A DNA stretch of 64,000 nt from an uncultured Gammaproteobacteria bacterium (lineage in GTDB: Bacteria; Patescibacteriota; Patescibacteriia; UBA9934). The notes beneath the pieces are model-generated. The model saw only the letters and a list, made by a program, of their open reading frames with translations. It was not told the origin of the DNA and ran no database searches. The stretch is from NCBI GenBank assembly GCA_964599455.1, contig CAZREA010000001.1:7687-71686 (forward strand). Direction: 5' to 3'. Shown one piece after another: positions 7,149 through 57,786 of this stretch. Every line of letters begins with the position of its first letter. The first letter of the stretch is position 1. Made by a program: the position numbers and the translations under genes.

Positions 7149-9098
<1,950 letters not shown>

Positions 9099-9109
9099 TG
9101 AGGTAGTTT

Positions 9110-9718
9110 GTGAAATTAAAAAAGACGATTAAATTATTATTGATAACAGTAAGTGGCGGAGTTATTGGATATGTAATAATTCCGTTATCATACTTCATTT
9201 CAGGATTAGTAAAATGGAGTCCCTCGTTATCTCTTGATGGTTTACTACAGATAGTTTTAGCGATAATTACGATATCAATCGTATTCTACTATGAATATAG
9301 GGGTCCCAAGGTTGATGTGCGTTTCAGATATCTTAGTGGACGTGTATTGATGGATTTAAGAACAAAAAATGATATTCTCACAAATGATGGAGATATAGTT
9401 ATTGAAGCGTATTGCAAATCTGATAATTGTTTAAAATTTTCAGATAATAATGATTGGGAAGATATAAGTTTAGGAAAAGATGAGCAGGGATATCTTAAAT
9501 ACGTCTTAAAATATAAGTCACCAAATGAATTCAGAATTTCCGGAAAGAATAATGAAATAACTATCATGTCAGGTCATGTAAGTAGTGATAATTGGCATCA
9601 AAAAAAGAGTGGATGTGACTATATCGTATTTAAATTTAGAGGAAGAGTACAAAAGAAATGGGATATGAGTGAGGATGATGATTATGAAAAAGATTTATGT
9701 CCGTCTTCGAAAAAATAA
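9110..9718 (+). CDS. Hypothetical membrane-anchored protein, strongly AT-rich (GTG start); likely a recent insertion between dnaK and downstream genes
   Basis: ORF track; N-terminal TM helices; local GC far below window background. Confidence 0.45.
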   Translation: MKLKKTIKLLLITVSGGVIGYVIIPLSYFISGLVKWSPSLSLDGLLQIVLAIITISIVFYYEYRGPKVDVRFRYLSGRVLMDLRTKNDILTNDGDIVIEAYCKSDNCLKFSDNNDWEDISLGKDEQGYLKYVLKYKSPNEFRISGKNNEITIMSGHVSSDNWHQKKSGCDYIVFKFRGRVQKKWDMSEDDDYEKDLCPSSKK

Positions 9719-10155
9719 AATTGTTGCTCGATGGTGCGGGGGTGCAATATGAAACCGAGCATCACGATCCGACGTATACGAGCGAAGACGCATCACGCAT
9801 TCGTGGTTCGTCCATGCATGCCGGAGCGAAAGCGCTGGTTATTCGGGGAAGTAAATCAGGAAATCACTTCTTGTTTGTAATGCCTGCTGATTTGCGTATG
9901 AGTAGTAAAAAAGTAACGGCAATTATTGGCGAAAAGTTTTCATTTGCACCAGAGCCAGAGGCGGTTACTGGTTGTGTAAAGGGTTCGGTTCCGCCGTTTG
10001 GATCGGTGATTGGACTCAAGACGTACTGCGACCAACGACTCGCGGAAAGCATAATCATCAATTTTAACGCCGGTAGTCTGACAGATTCGATTGAGATGAA
10101 GTATGATGATTATTTCGCCATCGAAAAGCCGAAGATTGTGGATATTACGGAATAA
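9697..10155 (+). CDS. YbaK/ProX-type aminoacyl-tRNA trans-editing deacylase domain protein
   Basis: Single-domain protein with HxxxxTSEEA...GxxxPFG...NaGs pattern characteristic of the YbaK/ProRS-INS editing fold. Confidence 0.7.
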   Translation: MSVFEKIKLLLDGAGVQYETEHHDPTYTSEDASRIRGSSMHAGAKALVIRGSKSGNHFLFVMPADLRMSSKKVTAIIGEKFSFAPEPEAVTGCVKGSVPPFGSVIGLKTYCDQRLAESIIINFNAGSLTDSIEMKYDDYFAIEKPKIVDITE

Positions 10156-10160
10156 TAAAT

Positions 10161-10493
10161 ATGATTACGTATCAAGATTTTGAAAAAGTAGATATTCGTG
10201 TTGGAATGATTATTGCCGTTGATGATTTTCCTGAGGCTCGAAAACCAGCGTATAAATTGACGATTGATTTTGGAAGTGAAATTGGCATTAAAAAGTCCTC
10301 TGCTCAAATTACCGAATATTATCAAAAAGAAGAACTTATAGGTCGGCAAATTATTGCTGTTGTAAATTTTGCTCCCAAGCAAATTGGCAAATTTATTTCT
10401 GAGGTGTTGACGCTCGGTCTTCCGGATGCAGCAGATGGAGCTGTGCTTCTTTCGCCAACTCTTCAAGTGCCGAACGGTGGCAAGTTATTCTAA
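10161..10493 (+). CDS. tRNA-binding domain protein (CsaA/Trbp111/MetRS C-terminal Myf-type OB fold)
   Basis: F-KVDIRVG-I pattern with conserved spacing, as in CsaA and EMAP-II-like tRNA-binding domains. Confidence 0.75.
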   Translation: MITYQDFEKVDIRVGMIIAVDDFPEARKPAYKLTIDFGSEIGIKKSSAQITEYYQKEELIGRQIIAVVNFAPKQIGKFISEVLTLGLPDAADGAVLLSPTLQVPNGGKLF

Positions 10494-10500
10494 ACTTCCT

Positions 10501-17964: not shown

Positions 17965-18441
17965 ATGCCAGATGCCCGTGTGAATCCTGTGCGTGTCGAG
18001 CAACCCCCTCTTCCCGAGCAAGGAGAGGCTGTTTTAGAAAAATCTGATGAATCTTTAGAGCATGTATCAACCCGGAGCAAAAAAAAGAAGCCCCGTGCAA
18101 GCGATATTTCTCAACAAATTGCCGTTGCGCAATCCATCGCCCCTTCTGTTGTTGATAAGAAAGATGAAACATTGCAACGCATTGAGGAGATTTTAGCCGA
18201 AGACCTTGCTCCAACCTTCAAAACGCTTTCTGTGGAACAGCGAAAAAAGTTTAAGGAAGAAGGTGAGCGAGTAGCGCTTTTTATTCGTGATAGTGTGCGG
18301 CAGGGAAAACTTCATGCGGCGCAGGTTCTTCAACGCATTCAACGATGGTTTTTGTTGATCGTCGATAAAGCACGCAGCTATTGGTGGCTGACGCAAGAGG
18401 CCTATAAAAAATCACGCAAAATCATGGTGACGTTCTCCTAA
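17965..18441 (+). CDS. Hypothetical Lys/Glu-rich protein immediately upstream of the P-loop ATPase
   Basis: ORF track; 10-bp gap to the next gene suggests co-transcription. Confidence 0.35.
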   Translation: MPDARVNPVRVEQPPLPEQGEAVLEKSDESLEHVSTRSKKKKPRASDISQQIAVAQSIAPSVVDKKDETLQRIEEILAEDLAPTFKTLSVEQRKKFKEEGERVALFIRDSVRQGKLHAAQVLQRIQRWFLLIVDKARSYWWLTQEAYKKSRKIMVTFS

Positions 18442-18451
18442 CATTTCTTTT

Positions 18452-21040
18452 GTGGCCAAACAAACTTCCTCTTTTGATCCCGCGGCAGTTGCCTACAGCG
18501 AGAGCTTTGCCTATGACCAGGTTTCTCCGCTCATTCCTTTTCTTTTTTTGACGATTATTGTTTTGATAATCGGTTGGACGGCCTTATTTTTTATTCGCAA
18601 GCGTGCAGCCGAGGCCCGACGATTGGGTGGCGGCGATGATGCGCCGGTCACGCTGCGCATCATGTTACCAAAATTTTCAAACGAAGAAGATGCACGTGCG
18701 CGTGAAGTCCAGCAAACAACAAAAGAAAAAATTGGTGTTGCCGAAACACTGTTTGCGGCGTTTGGGGGCTTGAAGCCTGCACACGGACTCAAGCATTGGT
18801 TATTGGCACATGAAGATGTGTTTGCACTTGAACTTGTCGCGCATCAAAAATTGGTTACGTTTTACGCAACGGTTGCAAAAAAACATCAACACTTTTTTGA
18901 ACAACAAGTGCACGCCCAGTGGAGTAGCGCGTATATTGAAGAAGTGGATGATTACAATATCTTTTCTCCCAAGGGCGTGATTGTGGCGGGGTATATTATT
19001 CAAAAACGGGAAAGTGTTTTACCGATTAAAACATATAAGGATTTAGAGGCCGATCCATTAAATGCGCTCACCAATGCGTTGTCGCAAGTTGCTGATGGTG
19101 ATGGCGTGGTGGTGCAGTATATTTTGCGACCAACCCATGGTCATTGGCGTGAACTTGGTCAAAGAATTGTGCGCAACATGCATGCCGGCTTAAGTTTTTC
19201 GCAAGCAAAAAAAGGGAAACCAAGCCGAGGACTTTTAGAATCAAAAGAGGATTTTGACAAACGTGAGGCAAAACTTCGTGAACATAAACTTTCGGCGCTC
19301 GAAAATAAGATGCTTGAAGGCATTGAACAGAAAATTTCCAAAGCGGGTCTTGAAGCCAATATTCGGGTGGTTGCTTCGGCGCAAACTGCCGAGGCCGCAC
19401 AGGCGTATTTGGGGAATGTGTTGCAGGCATTTGGCCAATACAGTATTTACGAATATGGGAATAGTTTTGATAAACATATCCCTTCGTCAAAAAAGGAGAT
19501 TCTCAATAACTTTATTTTCCGTCAATTTAGCAAGAATCATCGCCTTATTTTAAATACCGAAGAGCTTGCGAGCTTGTGGCACCTGCCGCTGCCGACAACC
19601 GAAACACCGAATATTGAGTGGCTGCTCGCCAAAACTGCACCTCCACCAACAAATACGCCGTCAACCGGCCTTCATCTTGGTTTTAATGCCTATCGTGGCA
19701 AGCGAACCGAAGTCTTCATGAAGGAAGCTGATCGTCGTCGGCACATGTACATCATTGGTAAGACCGGTTCGGGTAAATCGGAGTTTATTAAAAATTTGGT
19801 GGCACAAGATATTAAAGAAGGCAAAGGTGTCGGTGTTATTGATCCGCACGGTGATTTGGCTGATGGTATTTTGGAACTTATTCCCAAAGAGCGTGTTGAT
19901 GATGTTGTCTATTTCAATCCATCTGACATGGAATATCCGATGGGGTTGAACATGCTCGAGGTTCCGCTTTCGGAAGAAGATGCCAAGCTTGATCCTGAAG
20001 AGCAACGCAAAATTCTTGCCAATCAACGCGATTTTGCCGTGCAAGAAATGATCAATATTTTCTACATGTTGTTCCCACCGGAAATGATTGGTCCGATGTT
20101 CGAGCACAACATGCGCAACTACATGCTTACGTTGATGGCTGATCCAGAGAATCCTGGTACGATTGTGGAAATTCCGCGCATGATTGCCGATGAAAAATTC
20201 CAAAAGCAATGGGTTTCCAAGGTTACCGATCCGGTGGTCAAATCCTTCTGGGAAGATGAAATGGCCAAAACATCCGACTATCACAAGAGTGAAATGATGG
20301 GCTACTTGGTTTCGAAAGTCGGTCGTTTTGTAGAAAACGAAATGATGCGCAATATCATTGGTCAAACCAAGTCTGCCTTTGATTTCCGTAAAATCATGGA
20401 CGAGAAAAAGATTTTGTTGGTCAATCTTTCCAAGGGTCAAACCGGTGAAGTAAACGCATCGCTCTTAGGTTTGATTATCGTTGCCAAGTTACAGATGGCG
20501 GCTTTCCGTCGTGCCGATATTCCTGAAGAAAAGCGTCAGGACTTCTATCTGTATATCGACGAGTTCCAAAACTTCATCACCCCCTCAATCGCAACGATTC
20601 TTTCTGAGGCACGTAAATATCGTCTCGACCTTATCATGGCTCACCAGTACATGGGTCAGTTGGTCAAAGATGGCAAGAGCGAAATTCGTGATGCCGTGCT
20701 TGGTAACGTGGGTAGTACGTTTGTGGCACGTGTGGGTCCTGAAGATGTGGAAGTGCTCGGTAAAATTTACGAACCCGTGTTTTCGAAATTCGATTTGATG
20801 AACACTGATAAATTTACATGGAACGTCAAGCTGATTATCGACAACGCCCAAGAAAAGCCATTTACCATGAAGGCCTACCCGCCAATCAAGGGAAATGCGC
20901 GTGTGGCCGAACTCTTAAAAGACATTTCGCGTTTGCAATACGGTCGTCCACGTGAAGAGGTTGAGAAAGATATCCTTGAACGCGCTGGTTTGAATAAGAA
21001 AAAGGAGATCGCCATGCCCGCACCTCCGCCGGTGTTTTAA
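18452..21040 (+). CDS. Membrane-anchored P-loop NTPase of the VirD4/TraG/TraD coupling-protein or HerA/DUF87-like class (862 aa)
   Basis: N-terminal TM helix; Walker A IIGKTGSGKSEF followed by IDPHGDLADGI; Walker B YIDEFQNF; EARKYRLDLIMAHQ arginine-finger/Q motif typical of the FtsK-HerA-VirD4 superfamily. Confidence 0.7.
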   Translation: MAKQTSSFDPAAVAYSESFAYDQVSPLIPFLFLTIIVLIIGWTALFFIRKRAAEARRLGGGDDAPVTLRIMLPKFSNEEDARAREVQQTTKEKIGVAETLFAAFGGLKPAHGLKHWLLAHEDVFALELVAHQKLVTFYATVAKKHQHFFEQQVHAQWSSAYIEEVDDYNIFSPKGVIVAGYIIQKRESVLPIKTYKDLEADPLNALTNALSQVADGDGVVVQYILRPTHGHWRELGQRIVRNMHAGLSFSQAKKGKPSRGLLESKEDFDKREAKLREHKLSALENKMLEGIEQKISKAGLEANIRVVASAQTAEAAQAYLGNVLQAFGQYSIYEYGNSFDKHIPSSKKEILNNFIFRQFSKNHRLILNTEELASLWHLPLPTTETPNIEWLLAKTAPPPTNTPSTGLHLGFNAYRGKRTEVFMKEADRRRHMYIIGKTGSGKSEFIKNLVAQDIKEGKGVGVIDPHGDLADGILELIPKERVDDVVYFNPSDMEYPMGLNMLEVPLSEEDAKLDPEEQRKILANQRDFAVQEMINIFYMLFPPEMIGPMFEHNMRNYMLTLMADPENPGTIVEIPRMIADEKFQKQWVSKVTDPVVKSFWEDEMAKTSDYHKSEMMGYLVSKVGRFVENEMMRNIIGQTKSAFDFRKIMDEKKILLVNLSKGQTGEVNASLLGLIIVAKLQMAAFRRADIPEEKRQDFYLYIDEFQNFITPSIATILSEARKYRLDLIMAHQYMGQLVKDGKSEIRDAVLGNVGSTFVARVGPEDVEVLGKIYEPVFSKFDLMNTDKFTWNVKLIIDNAQEKPFTMKAYPPIKGNARVAELLKDISRLQYGRPREEVEKDILERAGLNKKKEIAMPAPPPVF

Positions 21041-21046
21041 GGAAAT

Positions 21047-21168
21047 ACAGATTTACACAGATCGAAAAGATTAAGACAGATGACATACTGTGGAAGAGGG
21101 CCTGTAAAGCAAGATGTTTCTCTGCTACCTTTTGATCCGTCGTATTTTATTGATTTGTGTAAATCTGT
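21047..21168. repeat. Intergenic element bounded by ACAGATTTACACAGAT (21047-21062) and its inverse ATTTGTGTAAATCTGT (21153-21168). Fills the whole gap between the ATPase stop and the dnaX start.
   Basis: Direct sequence comparison with the 3105/3301 pair and the 55809 copy. Confidence 0.55.
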
Positions 21169-21173
21169 GTCCT

Positions 21174-22841
21174 ATGTCCTCCGACGTCCTTTTCCGCAAA
21201 TACCGACCCCAGCAATTCTCCGATGTTGCCGAACAGGAGCATGTCGTACGCACGATCCAAAATCAATTAGCGCAAGACATGATTGCGCAAGTGTATTTGT
21301 TTTCTGGACCGCGCGGAGTAGGAAAGACGACGATCGCGCGGTTGCTGGCAAAAGCATTGAATTGCGAAGGGCGACAAAAAGGACAGAGTGAGCCTTGTGG
21401 GACATGTGCATCGTGTACGGATTTTGCGTTTGGGCGAATGATGGATGTGATTGAAATTGATGCGGCATCGCAGACCGGCGTTGATGCAGTGCGAGAAAAC
21501 ATTATTGAAGGTGTTCGCTTTAGCCCGACACGCGGTAAATACAAGATTTTCATCATTGATGAAGTGCACATGCTGTCGACGGCATCCTTTAATGCACTTT
21601 TAAAAACGCTCGAAGAACCGCCAAAGCATGCGATTTTTATTTTAGCTACCACAGAACTGCATAAAATCCCTGCGACCGTTATTTCTCGCTGTCAGCGTTT
21701 TGTGTTTAAGCATATTCCGGCAGCGGCCATGATTGAGCGTTTAAAAACGTTGGCGATACGTGAAAAAAGGGAAGTTGATGATCACGTGCTTGCACAAATT
21801 GCTCGTTTGTCTGAGGGTTGTTTGCGTGATGCGGAGAGTTTGCTCGGGCAAGTGTTTGCGATTACTGATGAGCGGGTGACCCTCGGCAATGCATCATTGG
21901 TTTTGCCGGTCACGCATGCAACGGCGGTTGCCGACATGGTTACGCATCTTGCAAGCGGCGATGTTTCCACTGCGATCAACGTGTTGAATACGACGGTTGC
22001 CAGCGGTGCATCGGTGAAGCATTTGCATGATGAACTTTTAGAATATGCACGAGCCGTTTTGCTACAAACATTAGGGGGACTTGATCACGAGCGTTTTGAT
22101 GGCGAGTCGTTGGAGCGAATCAAGACAACGGCAACGCAGTTGCAATTGGCCGGAGCAACACGATTACTTGATGAGCTCTTGTCAGCTCGTGGTCGCAGTA
22201 CGCCATCTTTGTTTCCGCAAGTCGCATTAGAGATTGCGTTTGTGAAGGCTAGTGTCATCCCGACGCCAGGAGGGATCTCGAACTCGGCGAATATTTCTCT
22301 TCAGCAACGAACAGACTCCGACGCCAGGAGGAGCCTAGAAAATCCTCTTAAGAAACAAGAAAATCAACCAGGAGAAATAGATATTCCTCAGCAAAATTCT
22401 CAACCATTCCAAGAACCTCCGAAGGAATCTGCTAGATCCTTCCAGCCTGCCCTGAGTGAACGCGAAGGGTCAGGGTCTGATGCTCCTACCCCTTCGTCCC
22501 CTTCTGAATCCTCCACACCCCTCTCTTCCTCTGACCTTCGCGACAAATGGGGTCGCTGTTTGGAAAAAGCCAAGGCATCTGCAGGTCCGGGTTTTGGACT
22601 GGTGCTCGGCGTGGCCGAGTTTGTTGAAGTACAGGATGGCCGTGTGGTTGTTGTTTCGTTTCCTTACCAAATGCATCTCGATAAAATGAAAGATGCCAAG
22701 AATGCGCGTTTACTGCGTGATGCTATTGCGGAAATTGCCATGATGCCCGACATCGAGCTTTCATGTATTCTTGGCAAAAGAGCCGCTGCTGAAGATGAAG
22801 TAGGAACATTACTGGCTGAGTTTGGCGGGAGTGTGGTGTAA
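21174..22841 (+). CDS. dnaX: DNA polymerase III subunit gamma/tau. Carries an in-frame low-complexity insertion derived from the palindromic repeat family.
   Basis: GPRGVGKTT Walker A, clamp-loader motifs, Zn module CGTCASC; the provided ORF start at 21114 trimmed to the ATG at 21174 (MSSDVLFRKYRP). Confidence 0.9.
   Translation: MSSDVLFRKYRPQQFSDVAEQEHVVRTIQNQLAQDMIAQVYLFSGPRGVGKTTIARLLAKALNCEGRQKGQSEPCGTCASCTDFAFGRMMDVIEIDAASQTGVDAVRENIIEGVRFSPTRGKYKIFIIDEVHMLSTASFNALLKTLEEPPKHAIFILATTELHKIPATVISRCQRFVFKHIPAAAMIERLKTLAIREKREVDDHVLAQIARLSEGCLRDAESLLGQVFAITDERVTLGNASLVLPVTHATAVADMVTHLASGDVSTAINVLNTTVASGASVKHLHDELLEYARAVLLQTLGGLDHERFDGESLERIKTTATQLQLAGATRLLDELLSARGRSTPSLFPQVALEIAFVKASVIPTPGGISNSANISLQQRTDSDARRSLENPLKKQENQPGEIDIPQQNSQPFQEPPKESARSFQPALSEREGSGSDAPTPSSPSESSTPLSSSDLRDKWGRCLEKAKASAGPGFGLVLGVAEFVEVQDGRVVVVSFPYQMHLDKMKDAKNARLLRDAIAEIAMMPDIELSCILGKRAAAEDEVGTLLAEFGGSVV
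22259..22480. repeat. Copy or copies of the GACGCCAGGAGG palindromic element embedded in-frame in the dnaX linker. It is translated as a Pro/Ser/Gln-rich segment including SDARRSLENP.
   Basis: Left cores CCGACGCCAGGAGGGATCT (22261) and CAGACTCCGACGCCAGGAGGAGCCTAGAAAATCCTC (22312), right-arm remnant CTGCTAGATCCTTCC (22428). Confidence 0.65.
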
Positions 22842-22874: not shown

Positions 22875-23678
22875 ATGCCTGAAAATTATTATGATGTTCT
22901 CGGCGTGCATCGTGATGCTGCGGTGGAAGAAATAAAAAAAGCGTTTCGCAAATTAGCGCTTGATTGTCATCCCGATCGTCACCCTGATGATCCAGAGGCC
23001 GCGGATAAATTTAGAAGAATTTATGACGCGTATGCGGTGCTTTCTAACTCGCAGAAAAGAGCGCGATATGATCGGGGCGAATCTGTAAAAGAACCTCAAC
23101 AAGATCAACGCGTCTATCCTTCTTGGGATGAGGTGATGCAGGACTTTTTCATGAATCGTATCGATGCGCGTACGGCGGTTGATGGTGTTGTTGCAGATTC
23201 GGGTATTCCTTCGATGTATGTTGGGGGAACTATGGAGGGTCCGACAACGGGCGTGGAATTATCTTCATCATTTGATTATCAGATTGAAAAACTTGATACC
23301 GCCCTTGCTGGTCTTGTGCATACATTAGATGGAACTCGAGAGCGCAACGGGGAGCTTCCTTGGCACCCTGATCGTCTGCGCCGAGCTGCCTGTGGTCTTT
23401 TGCAAGAAGGCTATCTTTCTGATCAAGAATTCATGAAGTATATGGAGGAGATTGATCAGTATGAAGATCGTCAGCGAGAAAAGGAGTTCCTGCGAAAAAT
23501 GGGGATACGCATATCTCAAAAAGAATGGGGACAAATGAGTAGTTTGGAAAAGGAGGAGATACAGAAGAAAACTCGACCACTTCATGATCGATCTGATAAG
23601 GCGAATGATTCAGATAAACGCGCACAAATGCGCAAAGAGACTGAGAAAATGAAGAAAAAAGCCAATCCATTCCGTTAA
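22875..23678 (+). CDS. J-domain protein (DnaJ-like N-terminal domain only, HPD motif; charged C-terminal region)
   Basis: YYDVLGV...CHPDR J-domain signature; no Zn-finger or DnaJ C-domains. Confidence 0.75.
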
Positions 23679-23762
23679 AAGAAAGAGGGAACGCCTGAGT
23701 GCTTCCTCTTTTTTTGTTTTTCGGGTAGAGTGTTTGGTCCTGAAACAACAAGGAGGAAGGAC

Positions 23763-24392
23763 ATGCGGAAGATCTCGTTAGGAGAATTATCCGAGAAATT
23801 TGCCCTCGAGGCGGACAAATATCATGTAGACTTCGTGAACGGTTACGGCGACCGTGGCGATGATGACGCGGGTTATAACAAAGTCGCCGACATCGTCAGG
23901 AAAGGCGTGGACTGGCGTCGAAAACATCTGCGCCGTCAGACCGTGGTTATTCTGGCGGGTGGAAAAACGAATAATCCCAACCGTTCCGAGGCCGAGAGTT
24001 TGCGTAAGCATTTTGACCGGGTACTGTCCGGTCGAGAAGTGTACGTCGTGTTGCTTGATGGGGTTACCGAGACCCGCACTGCATTCGAGCTTCTGCATAA
24101 CGAGGTAGGCGAGATCAGGCATATGACCGCGTACTTCGAGGCCAGCAACGCGCTGAAAGGCTGGGTGCAGATGATGCGGTTCTATCCGAACGCGCGAAGC
24201 CGGTGGATCAACTTTGATCAGTTGGGACTCTTCCCGCTCATCGGACAACTCATCTTCAAGGGAATCCCTGCCGCCTTGCTGACGTTCGTTGCGCTGTACT
24301 GGGATCGTGCGCGCAAGTTCGAGATCAAGCGTCGTGAGCTGCACATCGCCAAGGCGCGTACGCTCTGGATCAAGCATCAACTGAAGAAGTGA
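23763..24392 (+). CDS. DUF218/YdcF(SanA/ElyC)-like domain protein, paralog A, with C-terminal hydrophobic helix; lies in the GC-rich island
   Basis: VVILAGG...SEAESLRKHF...LLDGVTETRTAFE matches the DUF218 core pattern (GGG...SEA..m...L...G.....E..S..T.eNa); strong SD AAGGAGGAAGG before the ATG. Confidence 0.5.
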   Translation: MRKISLGELSEKFALEADKYHVDFVNGYGDRGDDDAGYNKVADIVRKGVDWRRKHLRRQTVVILAGGKTNNPNRSEAESLRKHFDRVLSGREVYVVLLDGVTETRTAFELLHNEVGEIRHMTAYFEASNALKGWVQMMRFYPNARSRWINFDQLGLFPLIGQLIFKGIPAALLTFVALYWDRARKFEIKRRELHIAKARTLWIKHQLKK

Positions 24393-24407
24393 CTTTTCAC
24401 CCATCGT

Positions 24408-24449
24408 CGCCCGCACTCTGTAATTGGAGTGCGGGCGTTGTGATTTTTT
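24408..24449 (+). terminator. Rho-independent terminator (11-bp stem CGCCCGCACTC/GAGTGCGGGCG followed by a T-run)
   Basis: Sequence inspection. Confidence 0.6.
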
Positions 24450-24530
24450 GACAGCGACATGTATCATTGATACTTTAGTTTGTCCGATCATGGACAAGGG
24501 GTTTGCGTTATCAATTCCCGTGGAGGAAGA

Positions 24531-24704
24531 ATGTTTACCGGAAAAATGAAAGTGATGTATACGGCGGCCTTTCGGAAGGCTGCCGAAGATCCGGACATCG
24601 CTCGTTCAGTCGGCATGCGCCGCATCCATCAGATGATGCCACTCCTTCTGCACACAGAGGAGCGAAGACTTCGTCAAGATGCCCAGGCGCTGATGATCGA
24701 ATAA
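24531..24704 (+). CDS. Small hypothetical protein (57 aa) with strong SD GGAGGA; GC-rich island
   Basis: ORF track trimmed to the ATG with SD; basic, helix-rich. Confidence 0.4.
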   Translation: MFTGKMKVMYTAAFRKAAEDPDIARSVGMRRIHQMMPLLLHTEERRLRQDAQALMIE

Positions 24705-24728
24705 CCCTTTCTTTTTCATGGGGGATCT

Positions 24729-24980
24729 ATGGGTGATGCAGGCAAGTTGGTTATCAATTGTTCGCATGAAGAATATAGGGATGTCGATCGTGCGCTTGGG
24801 CGCGCGAGTCGTGTGGAGTTTACCTACGACTGTTTGCCGTACCCAGGCGAGCGGCGTTTTCGACTCACCATGCGCTGCCTCAAGGCAGCTGGTCGCGTGC
24901 GTGAAGAGGTGGCCGTCGTCTGTATCGAGGCGAGCATCCAGGGCCATGTTTATTGGAGTAATGCGACCTGGAAATTCTAG
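24729..24980 (+). CDS. Small hypothetical protein (83 aa) with Cys pairs; GC-rich island
   Basis: ORF track; SD-like GGGGGA upstream. Confidence 0.4.
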   Translation: MGDAGKLVINCSHEEYRDVDRALGRASRVEFTYDCLPYPGERRFRLTMRCLKAAGRVREEVAVVCIEASIQGHVYWSNATWKF

Positions 24981-25105
24981 TGTGGCCCCGTGCCGTAGCA
25001 GGTCCTTCCCGTGGATCTCCGGTGCGGGGCTTGTTATGTTGCGGAAACTTTTGCTACCGTGTTGCCTTGCCCGGCATCTATTTGTCGAGCAAAAGGAGGA
25101 ACGCA

Positions 25106-25741
25106 ATGAAACTGGTTAACCCTGACTATCTGCTGATTGCCACCTCGACGCAGAAGGTTGTTGTCTACTTCGTCGATGTTACTTGTCAGTGGGTTGTTCG
25201 TTCTCATGACGATCGAGGCTACGGCAATCTCGCCCAAACAGTCTCTCGAGACATTGTCGCCGACATCAGGGTCGATCGCGATCAGCCGCGGGTGCTTGTC
25301 ATCGCTGGGGGAGCGAGGGACCATGGCGGCCTTTCCGAGGCCAGGAGTCTTTTGCAACATTTCGCGTCGCTGCTCGCGAAGGTCGATGTCGATGTCCTTT
25401 TGCTCGAGGATGTCATTGATACCCGAACCGCACTCGAGATGCTCGAGCGTCATGTGGTCAAAAGCGAGATCTTCATTGCTGGCTACTTCGAGATCGGTGA
25501 GGCTTTCAAGGGCACTTGGCATCTTTGGTGGTGCTTCTGGAGCCAGATGCCGACCGTCAGAGCGATCAATTTTGATGACCTCGCAGGAGTTCACTTACGC
25601 AAGGCTAAGATTCGCGGTCTCTTCGCTGCTGGTCTCACCATCCTGGCAACGTTCTCCCGATTCTTTCGTGGTATCGAGCTGCGGAAGTATGGAAAGGGAA
25701 TTGCTGCCGAAGAGGTGAATCAAAAAGCGACCGCTCAGTAA
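25106..25741 (+). CDS. DUF218/YdcF-like domain protein, paralog B of 23763-24392, with C-terminal hydrophobic helix
   Basis: VLVIAGGARDHGGLSEARSLLQHF...LLEDVIDTRTALE parallels paralog A motif for motif; SD AAGGAGGA before the ATG. Confidence 0.5.
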   Translation: MKLVNPDYLLIATSTQKVVVYFVDVTCQWVVRSHDDRGYGNLAQTVSRDIVADIRVDRDQPRVLVIAGGARDHGGLSEARSLLQHFASLLAKVDVDVLLLEDVIDTRTALEMLERHVVKSEIFIAGYFEIGEAFKGTWHLWWCFWSQMPTVRAINFDDLAGVHLRKAKIRGLFAAGLTILATFSRFFRGIELRKYGKGIAAEEVNQKATAQ

Positions 25742-25755
25742 CTGCGTCCGTCCGT

Positions 25756-25800
25756 CGTCCGTATCCTGGAATTTTCGGGATACGGACGTTGTGTTTTTAT
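25756..25800. terminator. Bidirectional rho-independent terminator (11-bp stem CGTCCGTATCC/GGATACGGACG, T-rich tail) between convergent genes
   Basis: Sequence inspection. Confidence 0.65.
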
Positions 25801-25802
25801 TT

Positions 25803-26078
25803 TTACTTATCATCTTTTTTATAGAGATGTGCAAACAAGGGATCTGACTTGTAGTCAACTTTAAGTGCTGCTACAAGCTCTTCATCTCCACCTAAAAAGT
25901 TTCCGTTCGCATCGTACGCATAATACGCTTCATGCGTGGTTGCCGAAAGGTTGGGAATACCCATTTCTTTCGTTATTGTTTGTTGTTCTTGTAATTCAAG
26001 TACCAGGCGATGATTCATTGCCTTTGCCTCCGTAAGAGCTTCTGCTGCAGAGGCAAAATGGAATCGCTTCCATCCCAT
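25803..26078 (-). CDS. Small hypothetical protein
   Basis: ORF track; host-like GC. Confidence 0.3.
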   Translation of the reverse strand: MGWKRFHFASAAEALTEAKAMNHRLVLELQEQQTITKEMGIPNLSATTHEAYYAYDANGNFLGGDEELVAALKVDYKSDPLFAHLYKKDDK

Positions 26079-26228
26079 TTATCTGCGAGTAAAACACGAA
26101 AGGTTCCATTACCGGCCATTTTGGGATGATTCATAGAAAGAGAGTATACGTTGAGTATACTGAAATGTTTTTTACCCTGCAAAACAAACAACCTCCGCGA
26201 CACGAGCCGGAGAGGCTGTGTGCGGAGG

Positions 26229-26627
26229 CTACGATTTGCTGGCGAGTTTCTCAGTATGCTTCTTCGCGCCTCCAGGCAAGGCGATCCAGACAGCGGCGAG
26301 CATGATGCCCATGCTCAGCAGCCACTCGAACGGCCAGTAGGTGTGCGTTGCGATCGCACGCGAGAGGGGCGTATCGATACCCCACCCGCCCATGTGTCGC
26401 AACTCCGTGCCATGGCAGATCCACTCGCCGCCCCCTCGATCACGCCAGAGATCGCAGTCCTCATAGCGCTCGAATCCGAGCGCGAAGGCCGTGAGTGTGT
26501 CGTGCGGCGCGATGCCGTCTCCTTGTGTGTTGAAGAAGCGGCTCAAGCCGCCGATCCCGCAGGATCCGCAGAAGATACCCATGCCAATAATGAACATCGG
26601 GACTGAAATGAGTGGACGCAGTGACAT
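26229..26627 (-). CDS. Hypothetical membrane protein, GC-rich (start uncertain; ORF extends to 26675)
   Basis: ORF track; two hydrophobic helices; GC content like the adjacent island. Confidence 0.35.
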   Translation of the reverse strand: MSLRPLISVPMFIIGMGIFCGSCGIGGLSRFFNTQGDGIAPHDTLTAFALGFERYEDCDLWRDRGGGEWICHGTELRHMGGWGIDTPLSRAIATHTYWPFEWLLSMGIMLAAVWIALPGGAKKHTEKLASKS

Positions 26628-26801
26628 GTCGATCTCCTCTAAGGCTGAGTTGAGAACACGAGTATTTAGGAACAAAGTAAAGTATCAATGAAAACGCTTT
26701 TCGTCAAAAAGCTTGTCAAAAACAAGGTGAAGAAAACCGATCATAACTCGCTCGACGTATCACTCTGATTTTGATACGCTTTTAGCATTTTTAGGCAAAA
26801 T

Positions 26802-27203
26802 ATGAAATTAGATCAAAAGCTTGTTGACGCCTGTATTGCGTTTATACATCAGCGTTTTCCCAATCAAGATGGTGAAGCGGCGGCCATGTATACCGAGGAT
26901 GGTGAAATCCTTCTCAGCACATCTCCCGCAACACTAAACGAGAGCGCAACGTTATGCCACGAAGTTGGCGCACTCTGCGAAGCCTATGCGAAAAATAAAC
27001 GCATCACGGCTACCGTTTGTGTTTCACTTTCTGCTGACGGCAAGCTGAAAATCTTTTCTCCCTGTGGTATTTGTCAGGAGCGTTTGCTGATTTACGGAGA
27101 AGGCGTTGAATGCGCTGTTGCGAAAGATGACGAACCATCAGTATGGGAAATACGAACGCTGGGGCAACTGCAGCCATACTATTGGCGAAAGGCTCTCAAA
27201 TAG
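26802..27203 (+). CDS. Cytidine/deoxycytidylate deaminase-family zinc enzyme (cytidine-deaminase-like)
   Basis: CHEVGALCEA (H/C-A-E) and SPCGICQERL (PCxxC) zinc-binding motifs of the CDA fold. Confidence 0.6.
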   Translation: MKLDQKLVDACIAFIHQRFPNQDGEAAAMYTEDGEILLSTSPATLNESATLCHEVGALCEAYAKNKRITATVCVSLSADGKLKIFSPCGICQERLLIYGEGVECAVAKDDEPSVWEIRTLGQLQPYYWRKALK

Positions 27204-27210
27204 TGGGTCT

Positions 27211-27858
27211 ATGATTAAAACGATTATTTTCGATTTTGACGGTACGATTGCAAATACTTTTCAGCGAATGGTTGAAATTTATAATGAAATAGCTCACAAA
27301 TATCGATGCAAGAAAGTGTTATCAGATGATTTAGATAAGTTGCGTTCTGGTAAGCCTCAAGAGTTCATGCGAGCATTTGGTATTAGTCCAATGAAGTTAC
27401 TATTTTTGGTTGCTGCTATCCGAGGGAAGCTTAAACGGGATATCGGAGACATTACTATCCAACCGGGAATACCCGAAATGCTCGGTGAGCTAAAAAAGTC
27501 AGGGATTATTCTTGGAATTTTGACTTCAAATTCTCGCGAGAACGTAGAACGCTTTTTGACACAAAATAATCTCAAAGATTCCTTTTCATTTATTCATTCC
27601 TCCCGACATCTTTTTGGCAAAGATCGCATTCTTCGTTCGATTATAAATAAACAATCCTTAAAGTCCCAAGATATCGCATATGTTGGTGACGAAATAAGAG
27701 ATATCGAAGCTGCGAAAAAAGCTGGCGTCGTGAGCGTTGGGGTTACCTGGGGTTTTCAAACAGAAGCAGCCTTGCAAAACGTTCGACCAAATTTTCTTTT
27801 TTCAAATCCAAAGCAACTATATAATCTTCTGGCTGGCAATACGGAAGAGGTGCTATGA
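27211..27858 (+). CDS. HAD-superfamily hydrolase (phosphatase, PGP-like subfamily IA)
   Basis: FDFDGTI motif I, LTSNS motif II, K...GDEIRDIEAAKKAG motifs III/IV. Confidence 0.8.
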   Translation: MIKTIIFDFDGTIANTFQRMVEIYNEIAHKYRCKKVLSDDLDKLRSGKPQEFMRAFGISPMKLLFLVAAIRGKLKRDIGDITIQPGIPEMLGELKKSGIILGILTSNSRENVERFLTQNNLKDSFSFIHSSRHLFGKDRILRSIINKQSLKSQDIAYVGDEIRDIEAAKKAGVVSVGVTWGFQTEAALQNVRPNFLFSNPKQLYNLLAGNTEEVL

Positions 27859-28592
27859 ACTCTCTCGCGATTTTCGGAATCCTTTCAGGTATCTTCAGTG
27901 CCATCTCTTACCCACCCTACATTATTGCCATCTTGAAGGGTAAGGCAAAGCCAGAGCGCGCTTCATGGTTGATTTGGAGTGTATTGACTGCTATGGGTTT
28001 TTTTACCCAGCTTGCTGTTGGTGCCACTCATTCGCTTTGGCTTCCGGGCATTCAAGGAATTGGTGTGATCATTGTTCTGATCTTATCTATCCGTTATGGA
28101 TTTGGTGGACTTTTTAAAAGAGACGTGGTCACACTTATTGCGGCGGCAGTAACGTTATTGATTTGGTATTTTACAGACAATGCTGTCGTGGCTGTTTATC
28201 TCATCGTCTTGATTGATGCTATGGGTGCATGGCTCACGGTTCTAAAATCTTATAAGCATCCAGAAAGTGAAACATTGATCACCTGGGCACTTTCTGGTAC
28301 AGGAGGATTCTTTGGACTCTTGGCGGTTGGTGTTTACGATATGCCACTGCTTGCTTATCCATTCTATATTTTTATTTGCAACTTCGTCGTTGTCGTAGCT
28401 ACTTTCCTTGCTTTGATTGTAATTCCTCCAATTTTACAAATGCTTCCTGTACGGTTTGACTATCGAGTGCGATTGAAAAATCTCGTCCAGAGCCTAAAAA
28501 CCTCAAACGACCATCATTCGCTACAAGTAGTTGTCCGCCACCTCGAACATTTGCAGCATCGTTTTTATTTTCTATATAGTCCCTGGCATTAA
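27855..28592 (+). CDS. Hypothetical polytopic membrane protein (about 7 TM helices); 3' end may be shorter than the ORF
   Basis: ORF track; hydrophobicity; the C-terminal 45 aa look non-protein-like and overlap a convergent ORF. Confidence 0.5.
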   Translation: MNSLAIFGILSGIFSAISYPPYIIAILKGKAKPERASWLIWSVLTAMGFFTQLAVGATHSLWLPGIQGIGVIIVLILSIRYGFGGLFKRDVVTLIAAAVTLLIWYFTDNAVVAVYLIVLIDAMGAWLTVLKSYKHPESETLITWALSGTGGFFGLLAVGVYDMPLLAYPFYIFICNFVVVVATFLALIVIPPILQMLPVRFDYRVRLKNLVQSLKTSNDHHSLQVVVRHLEHLQHRFYFLYSPWH

Positions 28593-28734
28593 TCCAAAAT
28601 AACCAACCATCTGGGTAAACTTTTGGTGGAAGTATCATCATTGTCGATTTTGGGTCGTTGATGTCAATTTTGAATTTCTCTCCCACAAGTTGTAGTGCCT
28701 GCAGCTCGTTGAGTGATTGTTTAGCATTTTCCAT
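28399..28734 (-). CDS. Hypothetical small soluble protein (possible immunity-protein-like fold)
   Basis: ORF track; protein-like composition (PPKVYPDGWLFWINARDY). Confidence 0.35.
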   Translation of the reverse strand: MENAKQSLNELQALQLVGEKFKIDINDPKSTMMILPPKVYPDGWLFWINARDYIENKNDAANVRGGGQLLVANDGRLRFLGSGRDFSIALDSQTVQEAFVKLEELQSKQGK

Positions 28735-28867
28735 AATAGTTTTACTTTACCACAAATTTCTCAAGATCAGCTAATGAATAAAAAAGTAATCCCGACCCCG
28801 ATCAGATAGAACCAAGGAAAAAACTCGCTGGTCGCGGTCAAGAATTGATAGTAATATTATTGGATTC

Positions 28868-29269
28868 GTGATTCTACGTATGTACCAAATTACAAAACGT
28901 CTACTACCCAATCAGGATCTTCGATTCGAGATTGAAAAATTAGTAAAGGAGAACCACATCCAGGCCGGCGTTCTTCTATCTATTGTTGGATGTCTTACCA
29001 AATTACGTCTTCGGGTTGCCGACGGAAAGACGGTGAAGGAATGGACGGATCAATTCGAGATCGTATCGGGAACGGGTACCGTGTCTGAATCTGATTGCCA
29101 TCTTCATATTTCCGCTTCAGATCAAAACGGAAATACAATCGGTGGGCATTTGAAGGACGGTTGCCTCGTTGGTACAACGATTGAAGTGGTCATTCTCGTT
29201 TTTGAGGATGTCGCATACAAAAGAGAGCCTGATCAAGCTACCGGATACGATGAACTCGTCGTAAAGTAA
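28868..29269 (+). CDS. PPC-domain (DUF296) protein
   Basis: Architecture and HLHISASDQNGNTIGGHL motif typical of PCC/DUF296 proteins. Confidence 0.55.
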   Translation: MILRMYQITKRLLPNQDLRFEIEKLVKENHIQAGVLLSIVGCLTKLRLRVADGKTVKEWTDQFEIVSGTGTVSESDCHLHISASDQNGNTIGGHLKDGCLVGTTIEVVILVFEDVAYKREPDQATGYDELVVK

Positions 29270-29335: not shown

Positions 29336-29365
29336 GCACCAGCCTTTGCGGCTGGTGCTTTTTTG
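29336..29365 (+). terminator. Rho-independent terminator (AGCACCAGCC-TTTGC-GGCTGGTGCT followed by TTTTTT)
   Basis: Sequence inspection; abuts the 3' end of tRNA-Gln on the opposite strand. Confidence 0.65.
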
Positions 29366-29437
29366 GTTCCGAGACATGGATTCGAACCATGATTGACTGA
29401 TTCAGAGTCAGTTGTCCTGCCATTAGACGATCTCGGA
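29364..29437 (-). tRNA. tRNA-Gln (anticodon CTG), U1-A72 pair, CCA encoded
   Basis: Hand fold of the reverse complement: acceptor TCCGAGA/TCTCGGA, anticodon stem ACTGA/TCAGT with loop CTCTGAA, T-arm CATGG TTCGAAT CCATG. Confidence 0.75.
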
Positions 29438-41141: not shown

Positions 41142-42314
41142 ATGAAAACATTTTTTGCATTCACTTCTTTGTGGTCTCGCTTGGTTCTGGCGATGATGTT
41201 GTTTTATCCTGTGTCCATACATGCGGCTGATGCGGATTTAAGTATTTCTGCTGCATCCATTCGCTTTTCTGAAGAAATACTCTATGCAGGAGACGACGTG
41301 CGATTATATGCAACGGTGAGAAATTATAGTGACGTTGATATTTCGGCACAGGTTTTCTTTTATATTGGAGCAGAATTGGTAGGGAAATCGCAGTACGTTT
41401 CCGTTCTTGCCGATGGCGCGAGTGATGACGTGTATATCGATGTTACTATTCCCATCGGCGAATTTAATATTCGTGCTGTTGTGCAAGGACAAAGTCCTAA
41501 AGATACGAATGCAGCGAATGATGAAGCGGTAACGGGAACATTTTTTGGTATCGCTGATGAAGATCGGGATAGTATTGCCGATGATGAGGATAATTGTGTG
41601 GAAGATGACAACAGTGATCAAGCTGATAGTGATGGAGATGATGAGGGCGATGTGTGCGATAACGATCGTGATGGCGATGAGGTGGAAAATAGTATAGATG
41701 CATTTCCCGATGATCCAACAAAAACGCAAAACACCCCCTCAGCTCCTGTAACCGCTTCTCAAGAAGAGATTCCTTCGACACCAGTGACATCTGAACAAGA
41801 GACTGCACCAACGACTTCGACGACAACAAGTCCCTTACAAGACCAGGTTTCCAGTGCATCTGATACAGAAGATGACGCAACCGCTGCGAATTCTGTACAA
41901 ACCGCGATACTTCCTGATGCGATCACTGATGTGCTTTTTGGCTACGGTAAACTCGAAATTTCTCCTGATGCGCAATTTACCTATCGACAAATTGATTGGC
42001 GTACCTACGAATTTTTTGCAAATCCCACACCGGGTGATGATGCGATCACGTATGCGTGGGATTTTGGTGATGGTGCAACTTCGGCACAGCAAACAATTAC
42101 CCATTCTTTTTCGCATCCGGGAACATACAGCGTCACCCTTACCGCTGCTGATGATGCGGGAGTTGTTTCTGATGCGCAGTCTTTCACTATTTCCTTTTTT
42201 CATCTCCGTAACCCTTTATTGCAAGGGACGCTCGCCATACTCTTTTTAATCCTGTTTGGTTTGATATGGTTTTTGATGCAATTGCGACGACAACGTACTC
42301 GTGATGAGGTATGA
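41142..42314 (+). CDS. Cell-surface protein: signal peptide, CARDB-like N-domain, thrombospondin-type-3-like acidic Ca-binding repeats, PKD-like domain, C-terminal TM anchor
   Basis: DxDxDGxxDxxD repeat run; WDFGDGATS...THSFSHPGTYSVTL PKD signature; terminal hydrophobic helix plus RRQR. Confidence 0.55.
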   Translation: MKTFFAFTSLWSRLVLAMMLFYPVSIHAADADLSISAASIRFSEEILYAGDDVRLYATVRNYSDVDISAQVFFYIGAELVGKSQYVSVLADGASDDVYIDVTIPIGEFNIRAVVQGQSPKDTNAANDEAVTGTFFGIADEDRDSIADDEDNCVEDDNSDQADSDGDDEGDVCDNDRDGDEVENSIDAFPDDPTKTQNTPSAPVTASQEEIPSTPVTSEQETAPTTSTTTSPLQDQVSSASDTEDDATAANSVQTAILPDAITDVLFGYGKLEISPDAQFTYRQIDWRTYEFFANPTPGDDAITYAWDFGDGATSAQQTITHSFSHPGTYSVTLTAADDAGVVSDAQSFTISFFHLRNPLLQGTLAILFLILFGLIWFLMQLRRQRTRDEV

Positions 42315-48713: not shown

Positions 48714-49370
48714 ATGTCTTTTATGAAAATATTGCGATATGTTCTGATTATTTTTCTTATCGGAATAATTTGTTTTCTTGGAATAAACATCTACATCCTC
48801 CAATCAACCAAAAACACCATCGTCACCGATCCTGAACTTACATCCGTCATCATTGTTCTTGGTGCAGGATTAAAGCCCGATGGAACACCGTCGGATGTTT
48901 TAAGAGATCGATTGAAGGTTGGAATTAAACTCTACAAAGAAGGGAAGGGAACGAAGCTACTTTTCTCGGGTGATAATGGACAGGTGCGATATGACGAAGT
49001 GAATGCCATGCGGGTCTTTGCGCTCAGTCAAGATATTCCCGAAGAGGATATTTTTCTCGATCATGCCGGTTTTGATACCTACGACACGATGTATCGCGCG
49101 AGACGTATTTTTGGCGTTACCGATGCCATTGTTGTGACGCAAGATTTTCATTTACCGCGTGCACTCTATGTTGCTGAGGCACTTGGGATACAAGTGCAAG
49201 GTGTCTCTGCGGATTTACAGCCTTATCTTTCTCGAACGCAGCAATATGCTCGTGAATGGTTAGCTCGACCAAAGATATTCATCGACATTCTTTTTGGCGC
49301 AAAGTCGAAGTATCTGGGAGATTCCATTGATATTACTGGTGATGGTCGACTTACGTGGGATGAGTTTTAA
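48714..49370 (+). CDS. DUF218/SanA(ElyC)-family envelope protein with N-terminal TM helix
   Basis: VIIVLGAGL...LFSGDNG...EVNAMRVFA...DHAGFDTYDTMYRAR matches the SanA/YdcF core. Confidence 0.7.
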   Translation: MSFMKILRYVLIIFLIGIICFLGINIYILQSTKNTIVTDPELTSVIIVLGAGLKPDGTPSDVLRDRLKVGIKLYKEGKGTKLLFSGDNGQVRYDEVNAMRVFALSQDIPEEDIFLDHAGFDTYDTMYRARRIFGVTDAIVVTQDFHLPRALYVAEALGIQVQGVSADLQPYLSRTQQYAREWLARPKIFIDILFGAKSKYLGDSIDITGDGRLTWDEF

Positions 49371-52389: not shown

Positions 52390-52776
52390 ATGGCTCGTAT
52401 TGCTGGAGTTACTCTCCCTTCGCAAAAGCGCATCATTGTTGCGCTGCAATATATTTATGGTGTGGGTATTACTCGTGCCAAACAAGTGCTTGCAAAAGCG
52501 AAGGTCGACGAAGAGATTCGCGTGAAAGATCTCACTGCGGATCAAGAAAATGCTATTCGTACGATCGTTGAAAAAGAATATCGTGTCGAAGGTGATTTGC
52601 GACGCGATGTGCTTTCAAATGTGAAGCGTTTAAAAGATATCGGTTCTTATCGAGGTTCTCGTCATACCAAGGGTTTGCCGGTACGTGGTCAGCGTACCAA
52701 GAGCAATTCTCGTACGGTACGCGGAAACGTTCGTAAGACTGCGGGTAGCGGTCGCCGTATGTTGACTAAGACCTAA
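52390..52776 (+). CDS. rpsM: 30S ribosomal protein S13
   Basis: MARIAGV...GVGITRA signature. Confidence 0.95.
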
Positions 52777-52780
52777 TGCT

Positions 52781-53272: not shown

Positions 53273-53291
53273 TTTACGGCTTTGATTCTCT

Positions 53292-53912: not shown

Positions 53913-53936
53913 TTCGCATTATCTTAATCTTCTTTT

Positions 53937-54689: not shown

Positions 54690-54692
54690 TGT

Positions 54693-55043: not shown

Positions 55044-55046
55044 TTT

Positions 55047-55406: not shown

Positions 55407-55408
55407 GT

Positions 55409-57675: not shown

Positions 57676-57786
57676 ATATTACTTATATTTTAGCATGTAT
57701 GCATTGTGTCTTTTTTAAAAAATGTACTTTATCCACATTGAGAAGCGGGGATGGCAAGGAGGTTATTTTTAAGGTATCCTCTTTGC

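Follow-up and report, generated by a model that had tools for sequence, protein, structure and literature searches.

An orphan and probably imported gene cluster around two paralogous proteins in a deep-branching Patescibacteria genome

Introduction

A 64-kb stretch of contig CAZREA010000001.1 (hereafter the window, by which the whole analysed stretch is meant, and to which all positions refer) carries a compact cluster of short genes between a J-domain gene and a cytidine deaminase gene. The host is a deep-branching bacterium of the Patescibacteria, or candidate phyla radiation (CPR), and the cluster is chromosomal. Two paralogous genes, here called A and B, flank two small open reading frames (ORFs), s1 and s2, and are followed by two ORFs on the minus strand, m71 and m132. 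An earlier interpretation drawn from the letters and the translated ORFs (hereafter the sequence-only reading) had labelled A and B as DUF218/YdcF-like proteins, had described the cluster as a GC-rich island acquired from a higher-GC donor, and had suggested an envelope-stress or defence module. The locus raises the question of what A and B are, where the cluster came from and how its genes are expressed. The answer favoured here is a descriptive model, held with a probability of roughly 0.55: an orphan, probably imported and co-regulated cluster, and not a DUF218 pair. The ORFs that had been proposed (A, s1, s2, B and the minus-strand ORF at 26229-26627, m132) were all present where they had been placed, and A and B do bracket s1 and s2.

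Homology of paralogs A and B

The word-indexed search of A against 5.8 billion clustered proteins returned only A itself, and the exhaustive HMMER search with a joint profile of A and B against 1.84 billion representatives returned only A and B. The search for homologs of m132 also found only itself. No meaningful match to the cluster proteins was obtained in Pfam, NCBIfam, PADLOC, PHROGs or the PDB sequences, and there was no match in the IMG/VR viral contigs (searched with the A and B profile, m132 and s2), the INPHARED GenBank phages or the PLSDB plasmids. In contrast, the SanA protein of the same genome had 7142 relatives, and SanA and dnaX each retrieved thousands.

The DUF218 label of A and B had to be dropped. 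Hidden Markov model (HMM) searches failed to support it for either protein, which was the outcome that the sequence-only reading had itself named as speaking against the label. The SanA gene of the window (48714-49370), correctly recognised earlier as a DUF218 gene, served as positive control and matched PF02698 with 93.8 bits (1e-26) against a Pfam gathering score of 27.6 bits, whereas neither A nor B gave a DUF218 match in Pfam or NCBIfam at an E-value of 1 or below. BLASTP of A and B against this SanA protein produced no match. Alignment by hhalign of the A and B profile with 37 SanA-type proteins gave a probability of 0.15% and an E-value of 0.39 over 19 columns, for a query of two sequences (effective number of sequences, Neff, 1.5) and a target from the SanA branch; the alignment also used another strand than the motif reading made by eye. 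Scores of -1.0 and -1.1 bits were obtained for A and B with an unfiltered HMM of the SanA subfamily. DUF218 was rejected as an assignment with Pfam, NCBIfam, BLASTP, hhalign and the unfiltered HMM all negative.

SanA needs a putative catalytic triad of Thr, His and Glu (T125/H149/E182; PMC12176290). The corresponding invariant residues T119, H143 and E178 were present in the alignment of the window's SanA. In A and B, no conserved His follows the fourth strand (YFEASNA/YFEIGEA), and a Thr (in TRTA) and an acidic residue (in INFD) could be placed by eye only. The architecture of A and B is also reversed: in SanA, ElyC and YgjQ the anchor is N-terminal and the domain periplasmic, while A and B have a C-terminal helix and neither an N-terminal hydrophobic segment nor a signal peptide or other export signal. 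The N-terminus of A is not hydrophobic, with a maximum Kyte-Doolittle value (KD19) of -0.09 in its first 30 residues.

A and B could still be extremely divergent members of the DUF218 family (SanA/ElyC/YdcF) acting in envelope-precursor metabolism, and some likeness to the Escherichia coli proteins SanA, ElyC, YgjQ and YdcF was found. A Rossmann-type alpha/beta domain of about 140 residues, predicted in A and B, is shared with that family, together with a glycine-rich strand end followed by a helix start of the S/D-E-A type, and most DUF218 members are associated with the membrane. By eye, the run (I/V)xAGG...SEAxSL...(D/E)TRTAxE resembles SGG/SGD...(D/S)E(A/V)xxM...T(Y)(E/D)(N/S), with the same order of strands and helices. 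A DUF218 protein of Marseillevirus was the best, though weak, structural match to A in the viral BFVD library (Foldseek E-value 6.7e-3, probability 0.99, template modelling (TM) score 0.42/0.49), and a second DUF218 protein stood at rank 20 among cytidylyltransferase-like proteins. The fold of YdcF is adenine-nucleotide alpha-hydrolase-like (PMC12176290), which is the class of most of the weak matches to A. Nevertheless, the 50 best Foldseek matches in the PDB contained no DUF218 structure, and with the profile results, the lack of a counterpart of the triad His and the reversed architecture, DUF218 membership of A and B is considered quite unlikely.

Composition and origin of the cluster

The compositional rise reported earlier is real but was overstated. 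GC content was 0.537 over 23763-25800 and 0.528 over 23763-26680, and not the 57-60% that had been set against a background of about 45%. With the 64-kb window as the background, other windows of the same size had a mean GC content of 0.456 (standard deviation 0.016-0.019, maximum 0.50), and none of about 1100 reached the value of the island (z 4.3-4.6). Values of at least 0.57 were reached in single 300-bp windows only, with a peak of 0.63 within 26250-26549, inside m132. Between 25800 and 26250, GC content was 0.41-0.45, which corresponds to m71, a gene of host composition, and the GC-rich stretch is not continuous.

The excess was located almost wholly at third codon positions. GC content at third positions (GC3) was between 0.59 and 0.76 in A, s1, s2, B and m132 (Table 1), versus 0.44 ± 0.08 for the genes of the window, while GC content at first and second positions (GC1 and GC2) of the island genes was normal. 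This is a mutational or codon-usage signature and not an amino-acid effect. Five island genes share it and m71, which lies between them, does not. The genes at 52390-55804, which from their position and size we take to be ribosomal-protein genes, have ordinary GC3, unlike the island.

These values make the proposed horizontal transfer from a donor of higher GC content plausible, and import is favoured because the excess is confined to GC3 and because A and B have the strongest Shine-Dalgarno (SD) sequences of the window. The sequence-only reading had considered such strong SDs unusual for the window, and indeed in the whole 64 kb only A and B have an AGGAGG placed 4-12 nt before the start of an ORF that is 50 aa or longer. 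The whole cluster was most likely transferred together from a donor of higher GC content that has not been sampled, perhaps a higher-GC CPR lineage or a mobile element of such a lineage. It resembles genomic islets of horizontally transferred genes in its local shift of GC content and GC3, its atypical translation signals, its orphan accessory content and its position in a non-syntenic stretch downstream of dnaX, and differs from them in having no integrase, tRNA-adjacent site, direct repeats or identifiable donor.

The cluster could instead be native, made up of genes that evolve fast and are specific to a CPR lineage of which little has been sampled, with GC3 raised by a local process. The proteins of this genome that were checked are all singletons at 90% identity, the nearest dnaX among the matches listed is 46% identical, many of the neighbouring genes also have no Pfam family, and mobility genes and insertion scars are both absent; each of these would suit a native origin. 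However, the other genes of the window without a family have ordinary GC3, and the GC3 shift, the codon preference and the strong SDs are common to five genes in three units and spare m71. The native and deep-branching SanA and dnaX nonetheless find their many relatives, while A and B find none among the 1.84 billion representatives. Native origin is therefore held to be unlikely, and import remains the preferred explanation of the composition.

Paralogy and coding status

A and B were 35% identical over 182 aa (E-value 1e-20), and the shared motifs quoted in the earlier interpretation were all found in their alignment. The six-frame comparison of A and B scored 70.9 bits in the proposed frame versus 42-46 bits antisense, and no significant similarity was found at the DNA level. 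In the codon alignment, identity exceeded the expectation for unrelated sequences with z-scores of 6.6 at the first, 9.9 at the second and only 2.3 at the third codon position, and 36 of the 66 identical residues were encoded by different codons. This codon pattern shows that A and B arose by an old duplication and are kept under purifying selection at the protein level. Synonymous sites between the two are saturated and GC3 is high in both, which would make the duplication older than the arrival of the cluster.

The sequence and its junctions were the same in two independent Logan assemblies and in an NCBI contig, so the locus is not an assembly chimera. One Logan contig (L001) was 100% identical to the window and the other (L002) identical at the protein level, so that no information on the ratio of nonsynonymous to synonymous substitutions (dN/dS) could be drawn from them.

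A codon model trained on A and B was used for the remaining ORFs; in cross-validation it gave +0.18 bits/codon from A to B and +0.33 bits/codon from B to A. The frame of s2 scored +0.18 bits/codon, with the other five frames at -0.17 or lower. The frame of m132 also scored +0.18 and was the best of six, whereas the overlapping plus-strand ORF at 26151-26606 scored -0.21. All overlapping alternative ORFs in the island had negative scores. The strand of m132 is disputed between the annotation sources: one Logan assembly has a plus-strand ORF of 116 aa, the other has the minus-strand ORF of 132 aa, and the NCBI source does not have the 132-aa ORF. GC3 was 0.76 for the minus-strand frame of m132 versus 0.55 for the plus-strand ORF 26151-26606, and by composition and codon score the minus-strand frame is favoured over the plus-strand ORF.

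The small ORFs, and s1 especially, might have arisen by chance within a GC-rich leader or spacer and not be genes, in which case their unit would consist of a long 5' untranslated region and B. The databases searched contain no homologs of the small ORFs and hence give no evidence of conservation, the score of s1 was +0.08 in frame versus +0.18 antisense, and the start regions of both are imperfect, with a spacing of only 3-4 nt between SD and ATG in s1 and a weak SD in s2. On the other hand, s1 and s2 were both called by two independent annotation sources, s1 has a profile of GC1, GC2 and GC3 like that of A and B, the s2 frame is the best of its six, and every overlapping alternative ORF is negative. 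In addition, no Rfam family was found across 23500-27000 at an E-value of 1 or below. That s1 and s2 are chance ORFs is accordingly regarded as improbable.

Expression signals

The SDs described earlier were recovered as claimed, with AAGGAGGAAGG 5' of A, GGAGGA 5' of s1 and AAGGAGGA 5' of B. The SD-start regions of A and B were 81% identical over 16 nt. The hairpin claimed as a terminator 3' of A had a folding energy of -26.4 kcal/mol (z -5.2) and was followed by a T run. The terminator 3' of B was likewise found, with a hairpin of -24.3 kcal/mol (z -5.0) and a T run, but is not canonically bidirectional as had been stated: when read on the minus strand, ACGGACGG follows the hairpin and a U tract is absent. 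The tail CG-TTGTG(A/T)TTTT is common to the two terminators (24408-24449 and 25756-25800), while the coding regions of A and B have no DNA similarity. The shared terminator tails and SD-start regions are consistent with duplication of a whole cassette of SD, gene and terminator.

The 20-mer TCATTGATACTTTA(G/C)TTTGT occurred in exactly two copies in the window versus 0.03 expected. The first copy (24464-24483, plus strand) lies 47 nt 5' of the start of s1, and the second (26691-26672, minus strand) 44 nt 5' of the start of m132. When the two promoter-like regions, P1 before s1 and P2 before m132, were aligned, the likeness reached TTTTTGAC-N11-TCATTGATACTTTASTTTGT, which corresponds to a -35 box TTGAC(A/G) separated by a spacer of 17 nt from an extended -10 box TGATACTTT. 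The pattern TTGAC-N15-TGnTAnnnT (also written TTGAC-N15-TGATACTTTASTTTGT) matched P1 and P2 only in the 64 kb. The T tract of the terminator of A overlaps the -35 box of P1. By these signals, the cluster comprises three transcription units: A alone, with an SD and a terminator of its own; s1, s2 and B from a sigma-70-type extended -10 promoter; and m132, possibly with m71, which may be co-transcribed with it. The simplest reading of the near-identical P1 and P2 is that a promoter or operator present in duplicate controls both s1-s2-B and m132 (perhaps with m71), and that the two units are co-regulated.

The two 20-nt copies also form inverted repeats (24464-24483 and 26672-26691), and these might delimit a segment of 2.2 kb, mobile or invertible, that carries s1, s2, B, m71 and m132. 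The arms are identical at 19 of their 20 positions and separated by 2188 nt and, as their expected number implies, such a pair is unusual, being unique in the window. No transposase, integrase or invertase was found in or near the segment, however, and each arm belongs to a full promoter, with -35 and extended -10 boxes, that is suitably spaced from a start codon, with a similarity that runs outward to the -35 box and does not stop at an element end. The segment does not include the GC-rich paralog A, inversion would have no effect since both units carry their own promoter along, and the same arrangement was present in all three assemblies. A mobile or invertible segment is thus very improbable, and the repeats are better read as the duplicate promoters of two co-regulated units.

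The spacer between s2 and B (24978-25110) folded with a z-score of -2.2 and contained a weak terminator-like site at 25017-25029. A second stem was also seen in this spacer, in which CUUUUGCU pairs with AGCAAAAG immediately 5' of the GGAGG of B, and this stem could modulate the translation of B.

Predicted fold and proposed function

AlphaFold produced one moderately confident model of A out of five (predicted local distance difference test score (pLDDT) 76, predicted TM score (pTM) 0.66). The model showed a five-stranded Rossmann-like core of alternating beta-strands and alpha-helices and a C-terminal helix of 49 residues, and the predicted order of secondary-structure elements in B was the same. 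The best, weak, PDB matches to A were UDP-GlcNAc 2-epimerase, pantothenate synthetase, short-chain dehydrogenases/reductases, PPAT, NadE and MnmA, with Csm6-CARF and YpsA also among them. A generic HUP-class Rossmann fold, with no finer assignment, is inferred for A and B from the model.

Comparison with the HUP class, namely pantothenate synthetase, the PPAT and NMNAT cytidylyltransferases, and the PP-loop ATPases (NadE, MnmA and argininosuccinate synthase), showed the same predicted strand order and three-layer sandwich. The class was the commonest among the weak Foldseek matches, and A and B have conserved polar residues at the C-terminal edge of the sheet as its members do. The differences are TM scores of only 0.25-0.42 with E-values of at least 4.6e-3, and the absence from A and B of the HxGH/(T/H)IGH motif and the SGGxDS PP-loop, in whose place AGGKTN (A) and AGGARD (B) are found.

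The polar residues that are invariant between A and B are located in the loops after the predicted strands: DDxGY after the first, AGG...SEA after the second and (D/E)TRTAxE after the third, with YFE at the fourth and INFD at the fifth. In Rossmann-like folds, ligands usually bind at this edge, and both paralogs are therefore probably ligand-binding or catalytic.

The C-terminal transmembrane or amphipathic helix that the sequence-only reading had placed in both paralogs was upheld for A, where residues 159-177 pass the Kyte-Doolittle transmembrane threshold (1.76); residues 169-187 of B reached only 1.32 and are more amphipathic. The minus-strand ORF m132 does have the two hydrophobic segments expected of a membrane protein. 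The hydrophobic or amphipathic helix of A and B would hold the domain at the membrane, and A and B may be proteins or enzymes located at the membrane, with a nucleotide or nucleotide-linked substrate as their ligand, possibly as a hetero-oligomer acting with the co-regulated m132 and with s1 and s2. This picture of membrane-associated, nucleotide-binding proteins working with m132 is put forward as the best guess, held with low confidence.

No positive evidence was found for the suggested envelope-stress or defence role, with no matches in PADLOC or PHROGs, and the probability of such a role for the cluster is very low. The cluster would then be a defence or abortive-infection module in which A and B are ligand-sensing, CARF/SLOG-like domains joined to a membrane-active helix, with the small proteins as partners. 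The Csm6 CARF domain and YpsA/SLOG were among the weak Foldseek matches (probability 0.5-0.8, TM about 0.3), and an architecture of sensor and membrane helix, an accessory and probably imported status and small adjacent ORFs would fit. However, metabolic enzymes with a Rossmann fold were matched at least as well, none of the six proteins had a PADLOC family at an E-value of 1 or below, and PHROGs returned nothing below an E-value of 0.1. Neither a nuclease nor an enzyme that generates a signal, nor any other gene known from defence, was found nearby, and the known defence families are widespread while the A/B family is a singleton. A defence module is hence given very little credence. A and B are described here as a sequence family that is new but belongs to a class of folds already known. 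There is also a slim chance that A and B are the first members of a family, not seen before, of Rossmann/HUP-like proteins with a C-terminal helix as anchor and that, with s1, s2 and m132, they form a self-contained, horizontally mobile membrane module for envelope modification or ligand-gated defence that circulates among unsampled CPR bacteria or mobile elements.

Several observations weigh against the description of the cluster as imported, co-regulated and built around Rossmann-like proteins. No integrase or transposase was found among the neighbours, no direct repeat flanks the cluster and no homolog in a donor was found in the databases searched. The nearest tRNA gene (Gln, 29364-29437) is 2.7 kb away with genes of host composition in between, and m71, also of host composition, interrupts the island. 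No genome is near enough for an empty-site comparison, the dnaX genes among the matches listed being at most 46% identical. The tetranucleotide deviation of the island (z 2.9) was matched by that of an unrelated AT-rich stretch at 8501-10500 (z 2.8). The ORF s1, whose antisense frame scored higher than its own, is the least secure coding sequence of the cluster. The fold model is fragile, as the other four models of A were not confident and the model of B had a pLDDT of 46.7, and Foldseek searches with the model of A in the PDB and the viral BFVD library gave no match at an E-value below 1e-3. The tail of A after the hydrophobic segment contains 11 Lys or Arg in 29 residues, which makes the membrane topology ambiguous. 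The functional statement on A and B rests entirely on fold class and hydrophobicity.

Locus layout and genomic neighbourhood

The features of the cluster are listed in Table 1.

Table 1. Genes and predicted expression signals of the cluster (GC3, GC content at third codon positions; SD, Shine-Dalgarno sequence).
Feature	Positions	Strand	Remarks
SD of paralog A, AAGGAGGAAGG	23750..23760	+	6 nt before ATG; read from sequence
Paralog A, 209 aa	23763..24392	+	GC 0.546, GC3 0.68; only homolog is B
Domain layout of paralog A			Predicted Rossmann/HUP-like alpha/beta domain at about 20-150, hydrophobic helix 159-180, very basic tail
Intrinsic terminator of A	24408..24449	+	13-bp GC-rich stem, then TTGTGATTTTTT
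P1, promoter-like, 5' of s1	24448..24483	+	-35 TTGACA, extended -10 TGATACTTT, shared 20-mer TCATTGATACTTTAGTTTGT at 24464-24483
s1, basic ORF of 57 aa, pI 10	24531..24704	+	GC1/GC2/GC3 0.62/0.38/0.59; GGAGGA 3-4 nt before ATG
s2, ORF of 83 aa, 4 Cys	24729..24980	+	GC3 0.60; weak SD, GGGGGA
GC-rich hairpin in s2-B spacer	24984..25031	+	Possible attenuator or processing site; weak evidence
Paralog B, 211 aa	25106..25741	+	SD AAGGAGGA at 25093-25100; GC 0.538, GC3 0.61
Intrinsic terminator of s1-s2-B unit	25756..25800	+	15-bp stem and T run
m71, ORF of 71 aa (91 aa from start 26078)	25803..26018	-	GC 0.39, GC3 0.33; SD GGAGG
m132, 132 aa	26229..26627	-	Two predicted transmembrane segments, Cys/Trp-rich loop; GC 0.60, GC3 0.76; SD GAGGAG
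P2, promoter-like, 5' of m132	26672..26707	-	-35 TTGACG, extended -10 TGATACTTT, shared 20-mer TCATTGATACTTTACTTTGT at 26691-26672

The flanking genes had been named correctly: the J-domain gene matched Pfam DnaJ (2e-25) and the cytidine deaminase matched NF006155 with 165.9 bits against a cut-off of 129. The region from the J-domain gene to a PCC-domain gene (22875-29269) comprises the J-domain protein, the island, the deaminase, a HAD hydrolase, a 245-aa membrane protein and the PCC-domain protein. Nothing in it was conserved in the 80 nearest dnaX loci, and it is a variable region that holds the island. The nearest dnaX genes, among the matches listed for GTDB representatives, were at most 46% identical and belonged to Patescibacteria such as Magasanikbacteria, Komeilibacteria, Falkowbacteria and Uhrbacteria. 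The neighbours of the region are housekeeping genes, including those for Dus, a beta-CASP RNase, endonuclease III, thioredoxin, DnaK/DnaJ and CysS.

Upstream (17965-22841, plus strand), the order of a small ORF (158 aa), an 862-aa VirD4/TraD-like coupling-protein ATPase and dnaX is kept in many Patescibacteria loci. The VirD4/TraD-like ATPase was 49-61% identical among loci (L003, L006, L016, L020, L022, L025, L026, L029, L045 and others). With the gene order around it conserved across Patescibacteria, this ATPase looks like a core CPR gene rather than a part of a conjugative element.

The deaminase (26802-27203, plus strand) is of the PRK08298/putative blasticidin-S-deaminase type and matched PDB 3b8f at 1.9e-29. 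Its homologs in metagenomes of the Joint Genome Institute (JGI; n = 11, loci L083-L093) were 50-67% identical and located on contigs with a GC content of 0.30-0.66 that had no neighbours in common. This scatter suggests that the cytidine deaminase is itself a widely exchanged accessory gene.

Elsewhere in the window, a lipid II flippase of the MurJ family (42311-43927), a membrane protein of polysaccharide biosynthesis (Polysacc_synt) that matched MurJ more weakly (57751-59268) and the SanA/DUF218 gene (48714-49370) were identified, all on the plus strand. The host thus already has conventional envelope-precursor genes, of ordinary composition. In addition, a 202-aa ORF directly 3' of dnaK (9110-9718, plus strand) was a low-GC outlier with a GC content of 0.305, a GC3 of 0.24 and no Pfam family.

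Biological meaning

The cluster is a lineage-restricted orphan accessory cluster of a kind that is common in CPR genomes, and its interest is modest; it does not make any long-standing question testable. The useful outcomes are that the DUF218 label is to be removed from A and B, that the compositional signal is located at synonymous sites, and that the promoter shared by two of the units offers a handle for expression studies. If it is a functional imported module, it would sample a gene pool, that of the donor lineage or of a CPR mobile element, which is absent from about 15 billion catalogued proteins, and the Rossmann/HUP fold class would gain a sequence family as well.

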